From an archaeon (GTDB taxonomy: Archaea > Iainarchaeota > Iainarchaeia > Iainarchaeales > 1-14-0-10-31-34), in assembly GCA_024277355.1 (NCBI GenBank), contig JAJRVL010000004.1, forward strand, positions 180,001 to 212,000: DNA of 32,000 nt. Direction: 5' to 3'. The position numbers were made by a program, and so were the translations under genes. Shown here in pieces: positions 6,265 through 30,183 of the stretch. The notes under the pieces are model-generated. The model made no database searches. It was given only the letters and a program-made list of their open reading frames with translations, and was not told the origin of the DNA. Within the stretch, counting starts at the first letter, position 1; the number at the start of each line of letters is the position of its first letter.

Positions 6265-7549
6265 ACGCCGAAGCAGTTACTCCGCCGTCCCAAGAAAATC
6301 TAGGGCGAATTTTAACCATCCATAAATTTTCAGTGTTATCATCAAGTATAAGCGCAAACCCTTTTGATTTAGGCATTTCCTGATAATATTTATCAAAATT
6401 CTGATGCATATAAGAAGGACGCAAAGCTGAAACAGCTTCAATATCCGGCTGAGAAGTCATTCTATGACTGATAAATAAATCGCATTGAGAAATTGAATCA
6501 GGATGCAGTTTGTCAGGACGCTGTGTTGCAAGAACTAAACTTAAACCCGGCTGTCTTCCAACCCTAACCCATTCCAACAAAACTTTTAATGCAATACTGC
6601 TTCTGTCTTTTGGCATAAACATATGTGCTTCATCTATTAGCATCCAAACAATAGGCATATCTGATTCTTTTTTTTCTCCTTCAATTAATTTCATTTCTTC
6701 TTCTTTTCTATAAAGCATTCTTTCTTCAAATAATCTTTTGCCGATTAAAGCAACAATTATTTCTCTTGTTCCTTCCATTCCAATTGCCTGTCTGTAAGCA
6801 GAAACATCAATTATTGTTATTTTTCCTGGTTCAGCTAAATCCTTTATTTTTGTTCCTTCTTTTTCAAATAAACCCCATGATTTAGCAACTTTTAGTCTTC
6901 CAACAACTGCATCTTTTGTTTTTTTATCTGCATCTTTATCTGACTGAACAGCAGAAATAATTTTTGGAATATCAAATAAAGTTCCAAGTTTTTCTTTAAC
7001 TGAACTAATTATTCTTGAAAGCAATACTCCTTCTGGTTCTTTCCATGTTAAATTAAATAAAGCAAGCCATTCTTCTGATTCTAATTCTGAAACTTTTAAA
7101 GTAAAAGCTCCGTCAACTGGAATTTTTTTTTCTTTATAAAAAGGAAGTTTTCCTTTTGGCACTAAAACTCTTACATCAGTTTTATCAGGAGTTAAATCCC
7201 AATTAAATAATTCTGCTTTTTGTTCTTTGTTTGGAATTTTTAAAGTCCAGAAAATTCCCACAGTGTCAATTGCAATAACTGAAATTCTTTTTTTGATATG
7301 CAAAGGCTGTCTTGCAAATTCTTCTAATAAAACAGCCATAGTATAACTTTTTCCGCCGCCTCTTTTGCCGCAAATTAAAACTACATGAGGTTTAGCTAAA
7401 TCCATTAAAATTTTTCTTCCTAAAACAGGGTTTTCACCTGAACTCATTACAACTTTTCCAATATAAGCAGTTCCTTTTTCTCTATGTTTTTCTAAGTCAT
7501 GCAGACTTCTCCCAATTACTGCTTTTTTTTCTCCTAAATCAATTGTCAT
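6254..7549 (-). CDS. HerA-like / DUF87 P-loop ATPase
   Basis: 431 aa. Walker A is VVLICGKRGGGKSYT and Walker B is WMLIDEAHMF, followed by LVLATQRP and DLFISHRM. This layout is typical of the HerA/FtsK-class DUF87 ATPases. Confidence 0.7.
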   Translation of the reverse strand: MTIDLGEKKAVIGRSLHDLEKHREKGTAYIGKVVMSSGENPVLGRKILMDLAKPHVVLICGKRGGGKSYTMAVLLEEFARQPLHIKKRISVIAIDTVGIFWTLKIPNKEQKAELFNWDLTPDKTDVRVLVPKGKLPFYKEKKIPVDGAFTLKVSELESEEWLALFNLTWKEPEGVLLSRIISSVKEKLGTLFDIPKIISAVQSDKDADKKTKDAVVGRLKVAKSWGLFEKEGTKIKDLAEPGKITIIDVSAYRQAIGMEGTREIIVALIGKRLFEERMLYRKEEEMKLIEGEKKESDMPIVWMLIDEAHMFMPKDRSSIALKVLLEWVRVGRQPGLSLVLATQRPDKLHPDSISQCDLFISHRMTSQPDIEAVSALRPSYMHQNFDKYYQEMPKSKGFALILDDNTENLWMVKIRPRFSWDGGVTASAFTD

Positions 7550-21399: not shown

Positions 21400-22062
21400 A
21401 TGAAAGTGTTAATTCCATTAATTTCAAGGCATGAATCAAACCCTGAATTTATAGATAAAGCAGTTAAAGGAACAGAAGAAGTATTACTGTTAATTGTAAT
21501 AGACAAAGATGATTCATTAAAAGCTTCAGATATTTCAAGTTCAACTCATTTTTTAGAAGAAGTAAAAAAATTAATAGGAAAAAAAAGAAAAAAATGTGAA
21601 GACTTAACTGAATGGGGAGAAACAAAAGCAAAAATAAAAAACACAGCAATAATTAATAAAGTAGACAAAATTGTGTTGTTAAAACAGGAAAACCAGTTTT
21701 TTGAAGATTTAATTGAAGAACTAAAAAAAGAAAAAGAACTCAAAAACAAAATTGAATTAATTGAAATTGATTTTGAAAAACAAGAACAAGAACAAAAAGA
21801 ATTTGAAGACAGCTTAAATGAAATAGAAGAAAAAACAAGTGAAAACAAAACAGAAAATGCAGAAGAAGAAAAAGAAAACATACAAGAAGAAAAAATAAAA
21901 GAAAACAAAACAAAAGGCGAAAATAAAATAAAAAATAAAACAATTAATTCAACAGAAAAAGTCGTTAAAAATGCAATGAAAGACACTAAAGTAATTGCAG
22001 ATAAACTAATCAAACAAGGCTTTAAATCAATTGACTCAATAAAAAAAATTAAATGGAAATAA
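21400..22062 (+). CDS. Hypothetical protein: USP-like N-terminal domain plus K/E/N-rich low-complexity tail
   Basis: 220 aa. MKVLIPLISRHES...EEVLLLIVID...VDKIVLL resembles an adenine-nucleotide alpha-hydrolase / universal stress protein fold. The last ~100 aa are an acidic/basic low-complexity region. Confidence 0.4.
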   Translation: MKVLIPLISRHESNPEFIDKAVKGTEEVLLLIVIDKDDSLKASDISSSTHFLEEVKKLIGKKRKKCEDLTEWGETKAKIKNTAIINKVDKIVLLKQENQFFEDLIEELKKEKELKNKIELIEIDFEKQEQEQKEFEDSLNEIEEKTSENKTENAEEEKENIQEEKIKENKTKGENKIKNKTINSTEKVVKNAMKDTKVIADKLIKQGFKSIDSIKKIKWK

Positions 22063-23763: not shown

Positions 23764-23886
23764 ATGAAACCTAAAAAAGAAGGATTTCCATTAAAAAAAA
23801 AGAAGAAAAAGAAAAAAATTAAAATTCCTTTTGAAGATTTAACAAGCCTTCCTTCAGAAAACGAATATGGAAATGAATTTCATTAA
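23764..23886 (+). CDS. Possible 40-aa lysine-rich peptide (weak)
   Basis: Hand translation gives MKPKKEGFPLKKKKKKKKIKIPFEDLTSLPSENEYGNEFH. Its stop overlaps the stop of the convergent ORF 23883..24530. It could be a chance ORF in A-rich DNA. Confidence 0.2.
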   Translation: MKPKKEGFPLKKKKKKKKIKIPFEDLTSLPSENEYGNEFH

Positions 23887-24530
23887 TATAAGTCAATTAA
23901 AGGCATGAAAATAAATTTTCCGTTTTTTACTCCTAATAACAAAATATTTGAAGGCATAATATCTATTTTTTCATAAACTTGTTTTGCTGCCTGTTCAAGT
24001 TGTTTTTTAGTAAATCCGTGTTTTTTGCTTAATTTTCTGAAAAATTGCCGGCCTTTTGTTGTAGGAGAAGCTTCAATAATATGGGGTTTAAGTTTAATAT
24101 CTCCTAAAATTTCATTTAAATTAGGTTTATTTGTTTTAGCCATTGCAACTAAATTATTTCCTAAATCATAAGCAATTGGTTCACGTAAAACAAAATTCAA
24201 ATCCTTTGGTATTCCTTTTTTTTTAATTAGTTCATTATAATTTCTAACTCTAAGCTGAATTTCTCTTAACTCTGTATTTGCTCCCCTCATGTCAGCATGC
24301 ATTTTTTTTATTACTAATTTTACTCCAGGATAATTCCTTGAAATATTCATTTGCCTTATTCTTCCTCCCCAAACATAAGTATCTTTTGACGGAACTTTAA
24401 AAATATTTTTTCTGGCAAAATCATTTTGTCTTGGATCAATGTTTTTCATTCTTCCTAAAGACTTATTAATTTTAGTTGAAACTTTTTTTAATCTTGAAAC
24501 AAGTTTTTTAGGCAAAGGTTTTACAGGCAT
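23883..24530 (-). CDS. Kinase-like paralog 1 (215 aa) with basic MPVKPLPKKLVSRLKK N-terminus
   Basis: Conserved blocks: GGRIRQMNISRNYPGVKLVIKKMH, REPIAYDLGNNLVAMAKTNKPNLNEILG, IDIMPSNILLLGVKNGKFIFMPLIDLY. Confidence 0.65.
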   Translation of the reverse strand: MPVKPLPKKLVSRLKKVSTKINKSLGRMKNIDPRQNDFARKNIFKVPSKDTYVWGGRIRQMNISRNYPGVKLVIKKMHADMRGANTELREIQLRVRNYNELIKKKGIPKDLNFVLREPIAYDLGNNLVAMAKTNKPNLNEILGDIKLKPHIIEASPTTKGRQFFRKLSKKHGFTKKQLEQAAKQVYEKIDIMPSNILLLGVKNGKFIFMPLIDLY

Positions 24531-24565
24531 AATAAAATTAGTTTTTTGTTATTTAAAATACTGGT

Positions 24566-25207
24566 TTAAAACAAGTCAATTAAAGGCATAAAAACAAGTT
24601 TTCCTTTATGCATTCCAACAAATTCCATTTGATCCGGAAGAATTCTAAGTAAATTGCATGCTTTGCCTAACTCTAAATAATATTTTACTCGAGGAATTTT
24701 ATTTTTCTTTAATGTTTCAGTTAAAGCTTTTCCTCTTAAACCTTTAATTTCCTGCATCGCAACAAGATTTTCTGCAAGCAAATGAACATCAGGCATTACC
24801 ACTTCATGATTTTTTGCTGAAACAGTTTTATTGTATTCCTGAACTTTTCCTTTTATTCTTTGAATTGTTTTTAATGCAGTTGAACTGTGAATTCTTTTCA
24901 AAATTACTCTTACTCCTGGAAAATTTCTTGAAACATTTAATTCTCTGACTCTTCCGCCGACAAATCTTGAATCAATTTTTCCAGGTTTAGTAAAAAAAGC
25001 TTTTAGTCCTTCTTTTTTTAATTCTTTAATAACATTTTTTTCTAAAATACTCATTTTTTTTCTATGATCAACATTTTCAAGTCTTTCAAAAGATTTAATT
25101 AAATCTTTTTTTCCATGCCTTTCAAGTCTTTTAGCTGTAGTTAATCTTAATCTGTTAACTAGTTTTGTCGGCAAAGGCTTGAAAAAAGGATTAAGTTTTT
25201 TTGGCAT
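24566..25207 (-). CDS. Kinase-like paralog 2 (213 aa), divergent copy lacking the D-x4-N element
   Basis: Blocks: KPLPTKLVNRLRL, GGRVRELNVSRNFPGVRVILKRIH, LVAMQEIKG, RILPDQMEFVGMHKGKLVFMPLIDLF. Confidence 0.65.
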   Translation of the reverse strand: MPKKLNPFFKPLPTKLVNRLRLTTAKRLERHGKKDLIKSFERLENVDHRKKMSILEKNVIKELKKEGLKAFFTKPGKIDSRFVGGRVRELNVSRNFPGVRVILKRIHSSTALKTIQRIKGKVQEYNKTVSAKNHEVVMPDVHLLAENLVAMQEIKGLRGKALTETLKKNKIPRVKYYLELGKACNLLRILPDQMEFVGMHKGKLVFMPLIDLF

Positions 25208-25239
25208 AAATACAATTGTAGTTTTCTTTCTTTAAAATA

Positions 25240-25893
25240 TTATTGCAAATCAACTAAAGGCATAAAAACAAACTTTCCGTTTTTTACGCCTAATAAAAGA
25301 ATGTTTCTGGTTGGAAAATCTATATATTTTGTTTTTGTTCTTCTGTAAAATCTTCCAAACGCTTCATTTAACTGTGTTTTAGTTACTCTGTGTTTTTTCT
25401 TTAATTTTCTGAAAAACTCCTGTCCTCTGATTGTTTTTCCATTAGAACCTAAAATTTCATCTAAATTAGGTTTATTTGTTTTAGCCATTGCAACTAAACC
25501 ATTGCCTAAAGCATAAGCAATAGGTTCACGTAAAACATAATTTTCTGGTTCAAAAGACTTGTTATGACTTTTAACTATTTTTTTTATTTCATTTATTTCT
25601 TTAATTGAATTAGGTGCAACATGAATTTTTTTTATTACTAACTTTATTCCAGGAAACTGTTTTGAAACATCCATCTCCCTTACTCTTCCTCCTGCACTGC
25701 TTATATTTTTTGGATTTAAAGCTAAAAGTTGTTTTATTTCAGGGTCATTTCTTCTATGGTCAATGTTTTTCATTGAACCTAAATTACCTGAAATTTCTTC
25801 TTTTCCTTGTTTAAATCTTTTTCTTTGTTCCCGTTTATCAGTAATTTTTTTTAATCTTGAAACAAGTTTTTTAGGCAGAGGTTTTGTCGGCAT
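25240..25893 (-). CDS. Kinase-like paralog 3 (217 aa from MPTKPLPKK)
   Basis: Start moved to ATG 25893 to match the paralog N-termini. Blocks: GGRVREMDVSKQFPGIKLVIKKIH, REPIAYALGNGLVAMAKTNKPNLDEILG, IDFPTRNILLLGVKNGKFVFMPLVDLQ. Confidence 0.65.
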   Translation of the reverse strand: MPTKPLPKKLVSRLKKITDKREQRKRFKQGKEEISGNLGSMKNIDHRRNDPEIKQLLALNPKNISSAGGRVREMDVSKQFPGIKLVIKKIHVAPNSIKEINEIKKIVKSHNKSFEPENYVLREPIAYALGNGLVAMAKTNKPNLDEILGSNGKTIRGQEFFRKLKKKHRVTKTQLNEAFGRFYRRTKTKYIDFPTRNILLLGVKNGKFVFMPLVDLQ

Positions 25894-25960
25894 AATATAA
25901 TTAGATTTTTGTTGTTTAAAAAACAAATGTTTTTGAATATTTTTTGGTTTTTTGTCTTAG

Positions 25961-26165
25961 AGAAAAAAAACAGAAGGAGGAAAAAGCACGCCTTAAAGAC
26001 GTGCTATCCCCAACTGAACGGGGTGAAGTCGTACAGTGATATTAACGGATAAACCGTTATCAGGAAGCAGTTTGTTCATTGACAGCAATGAGTATTTCTA
26101 AAGAGAAATCTTTTATCTGCTTCCTGAAAAAGGAAGAGAAACCTAAATTAAAATCTTCTTCCATT
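25961..26165. ncRNA. Hairpin-dense GC-enriched non-coding island, candidate structured RNA of unknown class
   Basis: Simple hairpins: AGCACG-N9-CGTGCT (25985-26005), CCCC-N8-GGGG (26008-26023), TAACGG-ATAAA-CCGTTA (26043-26059). An 11-bp helix TCAGGAAGCAG / CTGCTTCCTGA (26060-26070 / 26117-26127) encloses TCATTG-ACAG-CAATGA and ATTTCT-AAAG-AGAAAT. GGAAGAG...CTTCTTCC spans 26132-26162. No ORF. Confidence 0.4.
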
Positions 26166-26196
26166 AAAATCAATTATAATTAGACTTAAGTTTAAC

Positions 26197-26697
26197 TTAA
26201 ATATTTGGAAGCCTTACTGCCCGTGATATTCCTTTTTCAAGTAATGAATTAAATTCTTTTTGTGAAGGATGAAATTCATCTATGTTAACTTTATATTTTT
26301 CTTTAACAGAAGCTGAAACACTTGGGAAATATTTTTTTGCACTTTCAATTAATTGAAGATCAGCAACAATAATATCTGCACTTTTAAGCAGTTTAATTCT
26401 TGCATAAGTAGTTTCTTTTCCTATAGCTAAATTTAAAGCAACATTACTTAAAATAAAATTTTCAGAAAAACCTCTTTTTCTTAAAAATTCCCCAAACAAT
26501 TTCTGTGTTTTTTCACTTCTTGTATAAAGTGAACCAAAAAAAACTATTTTCAACGGACGTTTATTTTCTAATTTTTTTTTAATGTTTTTTAAAATGAATT
26601 TTTTTCTTTTAACTAAATCTGGTTTAGGTTTTTTCTTTGCTTTAGGAGAACGCAAACTATGCATTTTCCTTCTTCTTGCTTTTAAAGGAGTAGTCAT
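26197..26697 (-). CDS. Hypothetical protein with highly basic N-terminal extension
   Basis: 166-aa ORF. The N-terminus MTTPLKARRRKMHSLRSPKAKKKPKPDLVKRKKF is followed by a possible alpha/beta domain (LKIVFFGS...ADIIVADL). No firm family assignment. Confidence 0.5.
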   Translation of the reverse strand: MTTPLKARRRKMHSLRSPKAKKKPKPDLVKRKKFILKNIKKKLENKRPLKIVFFGSLYTRSEKTQKLFGEFLRKRGFSENFILSNVALNLAIGKETTYARIKLLKSADIIVADLQLIESAKKYFPSVSASVKEKYKVNIDEFHPSQKEFNSLLEKGISRAVRLPNI

Positions 26698-26912
26698 AAA
26701 ATCACAAATAAAATAAACATGTTTTTCTTTATTTAAAATGTTTTCTGAAAACCCTGCGTAAAAAAAAAATTAAGTTTTTACTTTTTATTTAGCCAAAAGC
26801 GTTTTTGATGCAACTTTTTCTGAAAAAATTGTAATTGCAATGCCTTTAAAAACTTTTTTTGAGAAAAAATAATAATCTTAATACCAAAATTGAATCCAAA
26901 GGAGTTGAAGAA

Positions 26913-28919
26913 ATGGAACTAGTTTTTTATTCTATTATTGCAGGAATAATTGCATTGCTTTATACTGTAATATTAAACAACAAAATTAATTCTCATGGAG
27001 TCGGAAACGACAAAATGAAAGAAATAAGTTTAGCAATAAGAGAAGGAGCAATGGCTTTTCTTAAAAGAGAATATAAAAGTTTAGCATTTTTTATTGCAAT
27101 TGTATTTATTATATTAACAATTTTAAGCCAGGTTTATCCTCAGGCAATGAACTTTTTTGTAGGAGTATCTTTTATTGTTGGTGCTTTATGTTCAGCTTTA
27201 GCCGGATGGTTAGGCATGAGTACAGCAACAAACTCTAATGTTAGAACTACTCAGGCAGCAACAACTTCAATGAGTGAAGCATTAAAAATTGCTTTTTCTT
27301 CAGGAGCCGTAATGGGTTTAAGTGTAGTAGGATTAGGAATTTTAGGAATAAGTGTATTATATTACATTTACTCTGGAATAATGAATTTTCCAAATCCAAC
27401 TGTTTTATTATTTGGATTTAGTTTTGGTGCTTCAAGCATTGCATTATTTGCAAGAGTTGGAGGCGGAATTTACACTAAAGCTGCAGATGTAGGAGCAGAT
27501 TTAGTTGGAAAAGTTGAAGCAGGAATTCCAGAAGACGATCCAAGAAATCCAGCAGTAATAGCAGACAATGTAGGAGACAATGTAGGAGATGTTGCCGGAA
27601 TGGGAGCAGACTTATTTGAAAGTTATGTTGGAAGTATTATTGCTTCAATGGCTTTAGGTTTAATTGCATTTGAAGTAATTGGAATGGAATTTCCTTTAGT
27701 TTTAGCAGCAGCAGGAATACTTGCTTCAATTATTGGAATAGTTTATGTTAATTTAATGAGCACAGGTTCAGGAGTTCATTCAGCTTTAAGAAACGGAACT
27801 CTTGTTGCAGCAGGAATAATGACTGTTTTTGCTTTTTTGTTAACAAACTATTTTGGGTTGCCAATTGAAATATTTTATTCAATGATAATTGGATTAATTG
27901 TAGGGTTATTAATTGGTTTTTTAACTGAATATTACACTGCACATGAACACAAACCAACACAAAAAGTAAGCCAGTCATCTGAAACAGGAGCAGCAACAAA
28001 TATTATTGCAGGATTATCTTTAGGTTATGTTTCAACTGCCTTGCCTGTATTAGTTTTAGTAATAGGAATATATTTTGCTTATGCTTTTGGAGGCTTATAT
28101 GGAATTGGAATTGCCGCAGTTGGAATGCTTTCAACTTTAGGAATAACTTTAGCTGTAGATGCATATGGCCCAGTAGCAGACAACGCAGGTGGAATAGCAG
28201 AAATGGCAGGTTTAGATAAAAAAGTAAGAGAAGTAACTGATTCATTAGATGCAGCAGGAAACACAACTGCAGCAATAGGAAAAGGATTTGCAATTGGTTC
28301 AGCTGCATTAACTGCTTTAGCTTTTTTTGCAACTTTTAGCCAGACAGCAGATTTAACTGTAATAAACATTTTAGATACAAATGTAATGGTTGGATTATTG
28401 CTTGGAGCAATGCTTCCGTTTTTGTTTAGTTCTTTTGCAATGACTGCAGTAGGAGAAGCAGCAGAAGCAATGATAGCAGAAGTAAGAAGACAATTCAAAG
28501 AAATAAAAGGATTAATGGAAGGAAAAGCAAAACCAGACTATAAAAGATGCGTTGAAATTTCAACTGATGCAGCATTAAAAAAAATGGTTATGCCTGGCTT
28601 ACTAGCTATTTTATCACCTATTGTTGTTGGCTTAATTTTAGGGCCAGAAGGATTAGGCGGATTATTAGCTGGCGCATTAGTGTCAGGAGTAATGATGGCA
28701 ATAATGATGGCTAATGCAGGCGGAGCATGGGATAACGCAAAAAAATACATTGAATTAGGACATCATGGAGGTAAAGGTTCTCCTGCACATAAAGCAGCAG
28801 TAACAGGAGACACAGTAGGAGACCCATTTAAAGATACAGCAGGACCTTCATTAAACATTCTAATAAAATTAATGAGCATTACAGCATTAATTTTTGCTTC
28901 AATTTTAGTGGTTTTATAA
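26913..28919 (+). CDS. hppA: Membrane-bound K+-insensitive/sensitive H+(Na+)-translocating pyrophosphatase
   Basis: Start taken at ATG 26913 (MELVFYSII), preceded by GGAG. Motifs: [68 protein letters not shown]. There are about 16 TM segments. Confidence 0.9.
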
Positions 28920-28940
28920 ACCACTAATTTTCTTTTTTTT
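28908..28940 (+). terminator. Hairpin plus T-run at the end of hppA
   Basis: GTGGTT-TTATA-AACCAC (28908-28924) spans the stop codon and is followed by TAATTTTCTTTTTTTT. Confidence 0.45.
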
Positions 28941-28949
28941 CTAATTTTA

Positions 28950-29132
28950 TTATTTATTTTTATTTCTTTTTTTACGGGATAATAAAGCAGAATCAATTTT
29001 AACGCCCTTGTGCATTAATTCAGTAATAAGTGAATTAGACAAAGGTTTTTTTTGATGAAATAAAGTTGAATTATGAAGTTTTCCTGAATTATTTTTAGGA
29101 TTAATAATTTTTTTTCGGTTTAATCTGGGCAT
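28950..29132 (-). CDS. Small basic protein S60 (MPRLNRKK...), shortest member of the small basic-protein (DRR) family; it lacks the DRR tripeptide itself
   Basis: 60 aa with an MP start. The C-terminus [16 protein letters not shown] aligns with the C-termini of the two upstream paralogs. Confidence 0.4.
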
Positions 29133-29136
29133 AAAA

Positions 29137-29532
29137 TCACTTTTTCCTTCTTTCTTTTTTTACTGCAGTTTTTCTTCTGTCAGTTTTAATCTGAACATGA
29201 TTAACAGCAGCATAAGATTTAATTTTTTTTTCATTACTTTTAGTTTTTATTTTTCCTACTGCTTCAGGGAAACCATATCTTATTTTTTCACTTAATTTAT
29301 TTTTAGTTATTTGTCTTTTGTTTTGATAACCTAAATCTTTGTAATGTCTGGTTTTTAATTCTTGTTTTGTTCCATTAACTTCAACAATTCGTCTTTTTTC
29401 TTGTGCAACAAAAGAGCTTGTTCTTCTGTCAGCTAAACCGGTTCTTCTGTCTTGTCCTATTCTTCTGTCTAAACCAAGAAATCTTCCTGTTTTAGTTTTT
29501 CTTAATTTGTTAATTAATTTTTTAACTGGCAT
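29137..29532 (-). CDS. Small basic protein S131 with four Asp-Arg-Arg elements
   Basis: 131 aa: MPVKKLINKLRKTKTGRFLGLDRRIGQDRRTGLADRRTS...IKTDRRKTAVKKERRKK. Confidence 0.55.
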   Translation of the reverse strand: MPVKKLINKLRKTKTGRFLGLDRRIGQDRRTGLADRRTSSFVAQEKRRIVEVNGTKQELKTRHYKDLGYQNKRQITKNKLSEKIRYGFPEAVGKIKTKSNEKKIKSYAAVNHVQIKTDRRKTAVKKERRKK

Positions 29533-29578
29533 TAAATCACAAATAAAATACAGAAATAGAAGTTAATAAAGTTAAGCT

Positions 29579-29938
29579 TTATTTTTTTCTTCTGTTTTTT
29601 TTAACAGAAGTATTTCTTCTGTCAATTGAAACATTAACATCAGATTTCATTAAAGCTGAACTGTCTTTAAAATTAACTACAGTAGTTTGTTTGTGTTCTT
29701 CAGTTTTAATTAATTTAGGTTTATTTGATTTATCATAAAATTTTCTTTTTTTATGAGAACTTAAATCAGTATAATCTAAAGTAATATCTCCTGTTTTAGT
29801 TTTATTTAAAATTTTTTTAGCAGGAAAAAGATTTTTTCTTCTTTCTTCAGGATTAGTTCTTTCAACAAAAAGTTTTGTGTTTTTTCTTCTGTTGAATTTT
29901 TTGAATTTTCTTCTAATCCAATTAAATAGTTTAGGCAT
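29579..29938 (-). CDS. Small basic protein S119 of the DRR family
   Basis: Start placed at ATG 29938 (MPKLFNWIRRKFKKF) by analogy with the paralogs. The C-terminus is SIDRRNTSVKKNRRKK. The longer track ORF would overlap the 30007..30183 gene. Confidence 0.5.
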   Translation of the reverse strand: MPKLFNWIRRKFKKFNRRKNTKLFVERTNPEERRKNLFPAKKILNKTKTGDITLDYTDLSSHKKRKFYDKSNKPKLIKTEEHKQTTVVNFKDSSALMKSDVNVSIDRRNTSVKKNRRKK

Positions 29939-30006: not shown

Positions 30007-30183
30007 TCACAAGTCATAAGGTTTTAAGGTTTTTCTTCCATTGTCTGAGCATCTTTTGATTGCTGAATCAATGTTTGCCATAACACTGGCACTTAATGCA
30101 TCATAAGTATCAGAACCCATCTGCATATTTTTTGATTTAACATAATCTCCGACTTTACTTCTAACAACTAACATATCTGACAT
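30007..30183 (-). CDS. DUF1931 histone-fold-like small protein
   Basis: Hand translation (58 aa, below the track cutoff): MSDMLVVRSKVGDYVKSKNMQMGSDTYDALSASVMANIDSAIKRCSDNGRKTLKPYDL. The LVV.SKV...K...R...DA...L...V...I..A...A...GRKT+...D pattern fits DUF1931. GGGGG lies about 10 nt upstream of the ATG. Confidence 0.6.
   Translation of the reverse strand: MSDMLVVRSKVGDYVKSKNMQMGSDTYDALSASVMANIDSAIKRCSDNGRKTLKPYDL

Follow-up and report, generated by a model that had tools for sequence, protein, structure and literature searches.

Lineage-specific genes in two variable slots around hppA of an AT-rich DPANN-type archaeal genome: a probably kinase-like protein family and a small family of putative chromatin- or nucleic-acid-binding proteins

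The window, i.e. the whole stretch of 32,000 nucleotides (nt) of archaeal DNA that was analysed (contig JAJRVL010000004.1, ~28% GC), carries endA, encoding a tRNA-splicing endonuclease, a gene for an archaeal-type tryptophanyl-tRNA synthetase (TrpRS) and the membrane pyrophosphatase gene hppA. A preliminary description of the window had drawn attention to seven minus-strand open reading frames (ORFs) around hppA, here called K1, K2, K3, ORF166, S60, S131 and S119. It read them as two tandem-triplicated families, one of them kinase-like, that share a basic N-terminal module and work together. All seven ORFs are present where it had placed them, six of the seven start with Met-Pro when homolog-supported starts are used (25893 for K3, 29938 for S119), and all are very basic, with isoelectric points (pI) of 10.4–11.7. 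The description is thus partly confirmed; its interpretation, two families forming a system around one shared module, for the most part lacks support. It appears somewhat more probable than not that the region holds separate lineage-specific genes, placed in two variable slots flanking hppA of an AT-rich DPANN-type genome, in which the K proteins are kinase-like and the S proteins bind chromatin or nucleic acid.

On one side of hppA (26859..28919, plus strand) lie the three K genes, all on the minus strand: K1 (23883..24530; 215 aa), the divergent paralog K2 (24566..25207; 213 aa) and K3 (25240..25893; 217 aa), for which family alignment supports the start MPTKPL and not the upstream TTG. The other side holds the two S-family genes, S131 (29137..29532, minus strand) and its paralog S119 (29579..29938, minus strand), which starts MPKLFN. 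ORF166 is located between the K genes and hppA, and S60 between hppA and S131. The hppA orthologs carry the domain PF03030 and start with MELVFY, which suggests that hppA in the window starts at ~26913.

A word-indexed search for relatives of the K proteins returned 17 sequences. A profile search returned 276 representatives of clusters at 50% identity, nearly all of them 190–230 aa long and aligned from residue 1 to the end. The few relatives that carry a name are all called "hypothetical protein [archaeon]", and one was found in the CG10 metagenome-assembled genome (MAG) of Candidatus Diapherotrites. Searches of Pfam, NCBIfam, PADLOC and PHROGs with the K proteins gave nothing significant, and a literature search for a described DPANN kinase-like family gave nothing relevant. 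K is an undescribed family of ~200 residues from uncultivated archaea. A search for related loci with a narrower K alignment gave two from genomes and 12 from metagenomes; the loci referred to below are labelled L001, L002, L007, L015, L017, L018, L020 and L021, and P0163 denotes an S homolog from the Diapherotrites CG10 MAG.

K1, K2 and K3 are genuine paralogs, 38–57% identical in the alignment; for K2 against K1 and K3 identities of 29–31% were obtained (29% for K1 and K2). The closest relative of K1 is the gene after TrpRS in L001 (62% identity). K2 is 56% identical to a gene in L002 (7410–8093), and in both of these the loop Asn is replaced by Gln (motif LRILPDQ). As K1 and K2 are each nearer to orthologs elsewhere than to each other, the paralogy proposed in the preliminary description stands and a recent triplication does not; judged from the sequences, the three genes are old paralogs that were brought together. 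At the DNA level K1 and K3 (23883–24570 and 25240–25933) form a mosaic, in which patches of 89–91% identity alternate with stretches of 30–55%. The high-identity patches are the 5' end, including ~24 nt of upstream non-coding sequence, nt 340–400, and the 3' end. This suggests gene conversion between the paralogs, which would explain the near-identical N-termini of K1 and K3.

A K gene is located directly 3' of TrpRS in L001, L002 and L007, and a 314-aa ORF intervenes in L017. In the window the K copy equivalent to this TrpRS-downstream gene sits beyond endA, and the TrpRS–K adjacency is lost, as it is in L018, L020 and L021. The gene directly adjoining TrpRS in the window (21400–22062, plus strand) encodes a universal-stress-protein-like N-terminal domain followed by a long Glu/Lys-rich low-complexity tail; in relatives a K gene separates the two. 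The order in L015 (ORF166-like gene, hairpin, K, microprotein/endA) matches that of the window with a single K gene, and a tandem K pair is also found in L020.

The AlphaFold2 model of K1, built with an 18-sequence alignment, has a predicted local distance difference test score (pLDDT) of 88.3 and a predicted template-modelling score (pTM) of 0.83. Its predicted order of elements is that of the protein-kinase-like fold: strands beta1–3 with K75 in a predicted strand at residues 72–76, a long helix, beta4–5, a hinge xAM and two short helices. The final element is a beta hairpin, NILLLGxKxGKFxFMPLxD, ending at D213, two residues before the C-terminus. In Foldseek searches with the model the top 50 matches in PDB were essentially all kinase-like, including MEK1, PsiK, Bud32, MKK7, PI3K, macrolide phosphotransferases and a chain of a pre-40S particle. 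The list from BFVD was mostly kinase-annotated and contained some unnamed or uncharacterized proteins; viral Ser/Thr kinases also occur in the two lists. The model and these matches support the kinase-like, lineage-restricted body that the preliminary description had proposed.

Residue conservation was counted in a 103-sequence K alignment. M1, D32, K75 and M130 are invariant, R34 is found in 101 sequences, D213 in 100, R59 in 99, P118 and P210 in 97 each, and R57 in 93. N195 is present in 79 and replaced by His in 11 more, and further conserved polar residues are H78, H98, N99, E140, T157 and R159. K75 occupies the position of the ATP-anchoring beta3 Lys, and D213 and N195 flank the beta hairpin as the metal-binding Asp and the catalytic-loop Asn do in kinases; all three residues are present in K1. 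A lack of conserved Asp, Asn and Lys positions had been named beforehand as something that would undercut a catalytic reading, and all three were found conserved at the expected places.

The best-conserved stretch of K is its N-terminus, MP(V/T)(K/R)PLPxxLVxRL ... LGRMKNIDHR. Residues 11–30 have a pLDDT of 95–97 in the model, so this basic segment, with the invariant Asp32 and with Arg34, is predicted to be folded, helical and integral to the domain rather than a tail attached to it.

Several observations weigh against the kinase assignment. The Foldseek scores are weak, with a best E of 1.7e-3, template-modelling (TM) scores of 0.2–0.33 and root-mean-square deviations of ~8 Å or more. None of the 103 K members matches a kinase Pfam family at E up to 1, save for one match to IPK at 0.045, and a PDB profile search with K alignments returned no kinase. 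A comparison by hhalign of the K profile with a three-sequence Bud32 alignment, harvested from the PDB matches, gave a probability of 0.2%. The HRD Asp is missing, position 190 being Gly in 46 of the 103 sequences and Asp in five, among them K1. The Gly-rich loop GxGxxG is likewise not found, and the corresponding motif reads (W)G(G/R)RVR, i.e. GxRVR. Furthermore, with a pI of 10.4 and a net charge of ~+29 the K proteins are as basic as the S proteins, which would be compatible with a nucleic-acid-binding, non-enzymatic role. No canonical kinase gene that could have supplied a comparison profile was present among the fetched loci. The PDB profile searches returned a single weak match (E 0.008), at the C-terminal end of a monofunctional glycosyltransferase, and it was judged spurious. 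We conclude with moderate confidence that K is kinase-like in its modelled architecture, and we place it in no known kinase family.

The smallest well-studied protein-kinase-like domain is that of Bud32/PRPK, the kinase/ATPase of KEOPS, which like K occurs in archaea, is small (~200–260 aa) and has no activation loop. The best fold matches of K include chains of Bud32 (8k20_B with a Foldseek probability of 0.84; 3en9 and 3enh), and the conserved beta3 Lys, loop Asn and metal-binding Asp are common to both. Unlike Bud32, K lacks the HGD catalytic Asp and the helices after DFG, adds a conserved 45-residue N-terminal helical segment with an invariant Asp and Arg, and occurs as several paralogs per genome. 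No Kae1-type neighbour of K was found in any locus, and together with the hhalign result this places K outside Bud32. The atypical and small-molecule kinases RIO, APH, Mph, ChoK, PsiK and PI3K/IPK have a two-lobed fold for nucleotide binding, which K may share, and resemble K in their Lys, Asn and Asp residues and in an xxM-type hinge. They recur in the fold-search lists of K, but at E 5e-3 or weaker and TM scores of 0.33 or less. In RIO kinases, as in K, an N-terminal helical extension precedes the N-lobe. K is shorter than all of these kinases, as it ends at the DFG-equivalent Asp, and a family-level Pfam match is absent.

Passing from fold, family membership, conservation and synteny, which are observed, to biochemistry, all of which we infer, K would bind ATP-Mg via Lys75, Asn195 and Asp213 and would perform phosphotransfer or ATP hydrolysis. 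Lacking the canonical HRD Asp, it would use a non-canonical chemistry. The conserved Arg57, Arg59, Arg159, His78 and His98 may hold an anionic substrate.

The K proteins might instead be non-enzymatic, either as basic structural proteins that bind nucleic acid or the ribosome or as ATP-binding, pseudokinase-like scaffolds. A role in translation or tRNA biology would explain their neighbours: TrpRS in L001, L002 and L007 (with an ORF between in L017), and endA and a tRNA-synt_1 gene, for another class I tRNA synthetase, nearby. The high charge, the missing HRD Asp, the Arg residues in place of the Gly-loop and the failure of kinase profiles to match all fit such a role. ATP-Mg-binding residues are usually lost in pseudokinases, whereas in K Lys75 is invariant, Asp213 near-invariant and Asn195 prevalent, each at its expected position. 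The conserved D32, R34, H78, H98, N99, E140, T157 and R159 suggest a pocket rather than a surface. In addition, there is no adjacency to TrpRS in the window, L018, L020 or L021. On this evidence a non-enzymatic role for K is unlikely, if still to be taken seriously.

A second alternative, which we regard as decidedly unlikely, is that the K proteins phosphorylate small molecules rather than proteins, in the manner of aminoglycoside, choline, inositol-phosphate or lipid kinases; their substrate would be a metabolite that is phosphorylated or anionic in some other way. Among the Foldseek matches are PsiK, macrolide phosphotransferases, PI3K and choline/ethanolamine kinases, and the Arg and His residues named above are conserved around the presumed pocket. 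K ends two residues past D213, the DFG-equivalent Asp, and so has no activation segment and no later C-lobe helices on which a protein substrate could dock. The faint IPK match of one K member would agree with this alternative. However, every match is weak, the one to IPK concerns a single sequence of 103 and lies below any threshold, and no conserved metabolic neighbour is found at the K loci.

Our own more specific proposal for K as an enzyme is offered with as little confidence. K may be a minimal branch of the kinase-like fold, in which the C-lobe after the DFG Asp has been lost, the N-terminal helical segment packs in its place and its Asp32 and Arg34 substitute for HRD at the active site. 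The ~170 residues and this segment would then form a DPANN-specific ATP-dependent enzyme, perhaps acting on chromatin-associated basic proteins such as those of the S family.

S131 and S119 are paralogous (BLASTP E 5e-5). A database search with S131 alone returned no relative; synteny exposed two S homologs in L002, of 175 aa and 153 aa, and an S profile search added P0163 and one fragment. L007 encodes a "mini-S" of 43 residues with only the N-terminal and C-terminal motifs. S homologs are thus present in three lineages besides that of the window, ~six proteins in all. The N-terminal signature is MPK(L/I)LxKLRR, and the N-terminus of S119 agrees with those of the L002 175-aa protein and the L007 mini-S in reading MPK(L/I)LGKLRR. 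The interior contains the repeats (D/N)RRK ... (E/D)RR ... DRR, the middle region is weakly conserved, and the C-terminal tail reads V-x-(V/I)-(K/S)-T-DRR ... RRK(K). The (D/N)RR, DRR and RRK motifs are invariant in a seven-sequence alignment. A hidden Markov model (HMM) of the S family scored S131 at 136–143 bits (134–143 bits over S131 and S119), and membership was found for S131, S119, the L002 homologs, P0163 and the L007 homolog. The AlphaFold2 model of S131 (pLDDT 57) shows disordered arms and a possible three-strand sheet, and the pI is 10.8–11.1 across the S proteins (11.1 for S131). They have no match in Pfam, NCBIfam, PHROGs or PADLOC. S is a real but tiny, fast-evolving family of very basic, mostly disordered (D/N)RR-repeat proteins.

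Directly upstream of the S genes the window encodes a 58-aa histone-fold protein (30007..30183, minus strand). It matches a DUF1931 protein in PDB (9qt0_A; phmmer E 1.1e-8), and also 9f2c_A (4e-8) and the bacterial histone entries 8fvx and 8cmp. An alpha3-truncated histone family with the motif RKTxxxD has been described, whose genes are generally single-gene units (PMC11390915). The 58-aa protein has this motif at its C-terminus as GRKTLKPYD, and so has the features of an alpha3-truncated, DUF1931-like histone. The gene is kept at the same position in L001, L002 and L007, and the order histone followed by S is found in the window, L002 and L007. In the CG10 MAG, P0163 is located 26 nt upstream of ScpA, with ScpB nearby. 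The two independent neighbourhoods, of a histone gene and of the condensin subunit ScpA, both concerned with chromosome organisation, the pI of ~11 and the predicted disorder suggest that S binds nucleic acid or chromatin, and we infer this as the most economical reading. The closest known counterparts of S are small basic nucleoid-associated or histone-accessory proteins, which S resembles in being very basic, rich in Arg and Lys and largely disordered, and in its place beside a histone-fold gene in three lineages and beside ScpA in one; S has no sequence or fold relation to the known chromatin proteins.

The preliminary description had counted S60 (28950..29132, minus strand; 60 aa) as the third and weakest member of the second triplicated family, and ORF166 as sharing the basic N-terminus. 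Only S131 and S119 group together. S60 shows no similarity to S131 (E 18), and its score of 1.5 bits against the S-family HMM is lower than the mean of its own shuffles. It is without a homolog in the fetched loci and gave nothing significant in Pfam, NCBIfam, PADLOC or PHROGs. From its sequence it appears to be a basic orphan ORF and not an S member. It contains two short peptide echoes of K, one to KNGKFIFMPLID and one to KPLPKKLVSRL. An origin of S60 as a relic of a junction between two K genes was considered and rejected, the DNA alignment score (29, against a control maximum of 32) being no better than that of shuffles or of control segments.

ORF166 (26197..26697, minus strand) has a basic N-terminal tail and an alpha/beta-looking body. 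Its score against the S-family HMM is -4.5 bits, and it is a member of neither K nor S. A homolog in the metagenome contig L015 (290–790; 35% identical) occupies the same place in the gene order, upstream of a hairpin and a K gene. The motif KIVFFGS ... ADIIVAD after the basic tail suggests a Rossmann- or flavodoxin-like domain, and no match was found in Pfam, NCBIfam, PDB, PADLOC or PHROGs. ORF166 is a third, unrelated conserved family.

Whether K and S share an N-terminal module bears on the idea, raised in the preliminary description, that the K proteins act as enzymes together with, or upon, cognate S proteins. In this model a common homologous basic module, MPxK ... KLxxRLRK ... DxR, would serve in docking or targeting. 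An HMM of the K N-terminus (residues 1–36; 103 sequences) was scanned against 286 ATG-started ORFs of at least 40 aa from the window and the related loci. The K proteins scored 34–65 bits. The best ORF outside K was S131 with 8–9 bits (8.0 bits, E 0.062 in the ORF scan); S60 reached 4–5.3 bits and the other S proteins at most 0.7 bits. None of the S proteins, S60 or ORF166 matched the K N-terminal profile significantly. In comparisons with composition-matched shuffles of the first 45 residues, with the initial MP kept, the real score was reached by two of 2000 shuffles for S131, 64 for S60 and 140 for the L002 153-aa protein. For S119, the L002 175-aa protein, P0163, ORF166 and the L002 119-aa protein the counts were 403–693 of 2000. 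The reverse test, with the S HMM on K N-termini, gave 165 of 1000 shuffles for K1, 202 for K3 and 10 for K2. Alignment of the S and K profiles by hhalign paired 13 columns (MPxK----LxxxLR) with a probability of 1.3% (E 0.039). As background, 24 of 149 non-overlapped ORFs of at least 100 aa in these genomes (16%) start with MP, and 15 of the same 149 (10%) have basic N-termini. At the DNA level there was no indication that S131 had acquired its 5' end from a K gene. Since these AT-rich genomes have many Met-Pro starts and Lys-rich N-termini, a short N-terminal resemblance is no proof of a shared module. The K/S resemblance is a short basic motif, of which S131 is the one convincing case, and homology of a shared module is not established. 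The module said to be fused in K and free-standing in S is, in K, part of a folded domain, and in S amounts to ~13 residues of S131.

Some results do speak for a joint system of K and S, and against our reading of separate genes. In the window and in L002 the K and S genes are ~5 kb apart or less, and in L001 a K gene fills the slot after the histone gene where others carry S genes. Against the K N-terminal HMM the S131 N-terminus outscores 1998 of 2000 shuffles (p ~0.001). The K2 N-terminus is similarly above most shuffles against the S HMM (p = 0.01), hhalign pairs MPxK--L(l/V)xxLR of the K and S profiles, and K is present in all four S-bearing lineages. Since the S-bearing genomes are all close relatives, however, this co-occurrence is phylogenetically trivial and carries little weight. 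The N-termini of S119, the L002 175-aa protein and P0163 are at shuffle level, and the segment is folded with high confidence in K and predicted to be disordered in S. In CG10 the S and K genes are on separate contigs, the K loci L017, L018, L020 and L021 (10–20 kb) have no S gene, and there are 276 K clusters against ~six S proteins. The enzyme/partner idea thus found no positive evidence, and the histone and ScpA context of S points to nucleic-acid binding, an outcome that its author had counted against it; we consider it very unlikely.

The GC-rich sequence that separates ORF166 from K3 has a much stronger predicted fold than its shuffles (z = -6.3, minus strand) and contains a candidate structured non-coding RNA (25985..26150, minus strand) with a conserved core at 26044–26141. 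The core is a hairpin with an 11-pair stem, made up of the 10 bp CAGGAAGCAG/CUGCUUCCUG and a flanking U-A pair, around a 46-nt interior. Nine of the 11 stem pairs are invariant; compensatory changes were found once in the stem and a few times in the interior. GC hairpins and a T5 run come after the core in the window (to ~25985). The hairpin core is found between hppA and endA in six lineages (the window, L001, L002, L007, L015 and L017). The structured island upstream of the kinase-like cluster is thereby borne out as a structure. Its tie to the cluster is not, because in L001, L007 and L017 no K gene follows, which makes the hairpin an element of its own rather than a K-cluster leader. It matches no Rfam family at the gathering threshold or at E up to 10, and ARAGORN found no tRNA in the GC island. 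C/D-box, H/ACA and signal recognition particle (SRP) RNAs were rejected by inspection, as the expected boxes are not conserved across the six copies. The hairpin may represent a new small RNA, or else a DNA site bound by protein.

A conserved 40-aa microprotein is encoded downstream of endA (23764..23886, plus strand), by a gene that overlaps the K1 stop codon by 4 nt. The sequence KKKKKIK(I/L)PxxDLxxLPSExEYGxExH, in which a poly-Lys tract comes first, is common to five lineages. The 17-nt sequence TATTTTATTTGTGATTT occurs identically at 26699–26715 and 29534–29550 (minus strand), immediately 5' of the start codons of ORF166 and S131, and may serve the two genes as a common promoter or 5' leader element; in two of 100 shuffles, two matches at up to two mismatches were obtained. 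In L002 the variable slots around hppA (467–1092 and 6574–7183) hold ParE-like and MazE-like toxin-antitoxin genes, which suggests that the slots are hotspots of genome plasticity.

Should K prove enzymatically active, it would rank with the smallest known kinase-like domains and have a non-canonical arrangement for catalysis, and it would help to define the minimal requirements of the kinase-like fold. Its annotation would also give a name to a recurrent "hypothetical" gene of DPANN-type genomes. The location of S next to a small histone gene and to ScpA offers a testable lead on chromatin accessory proteins in these reduced archaea.

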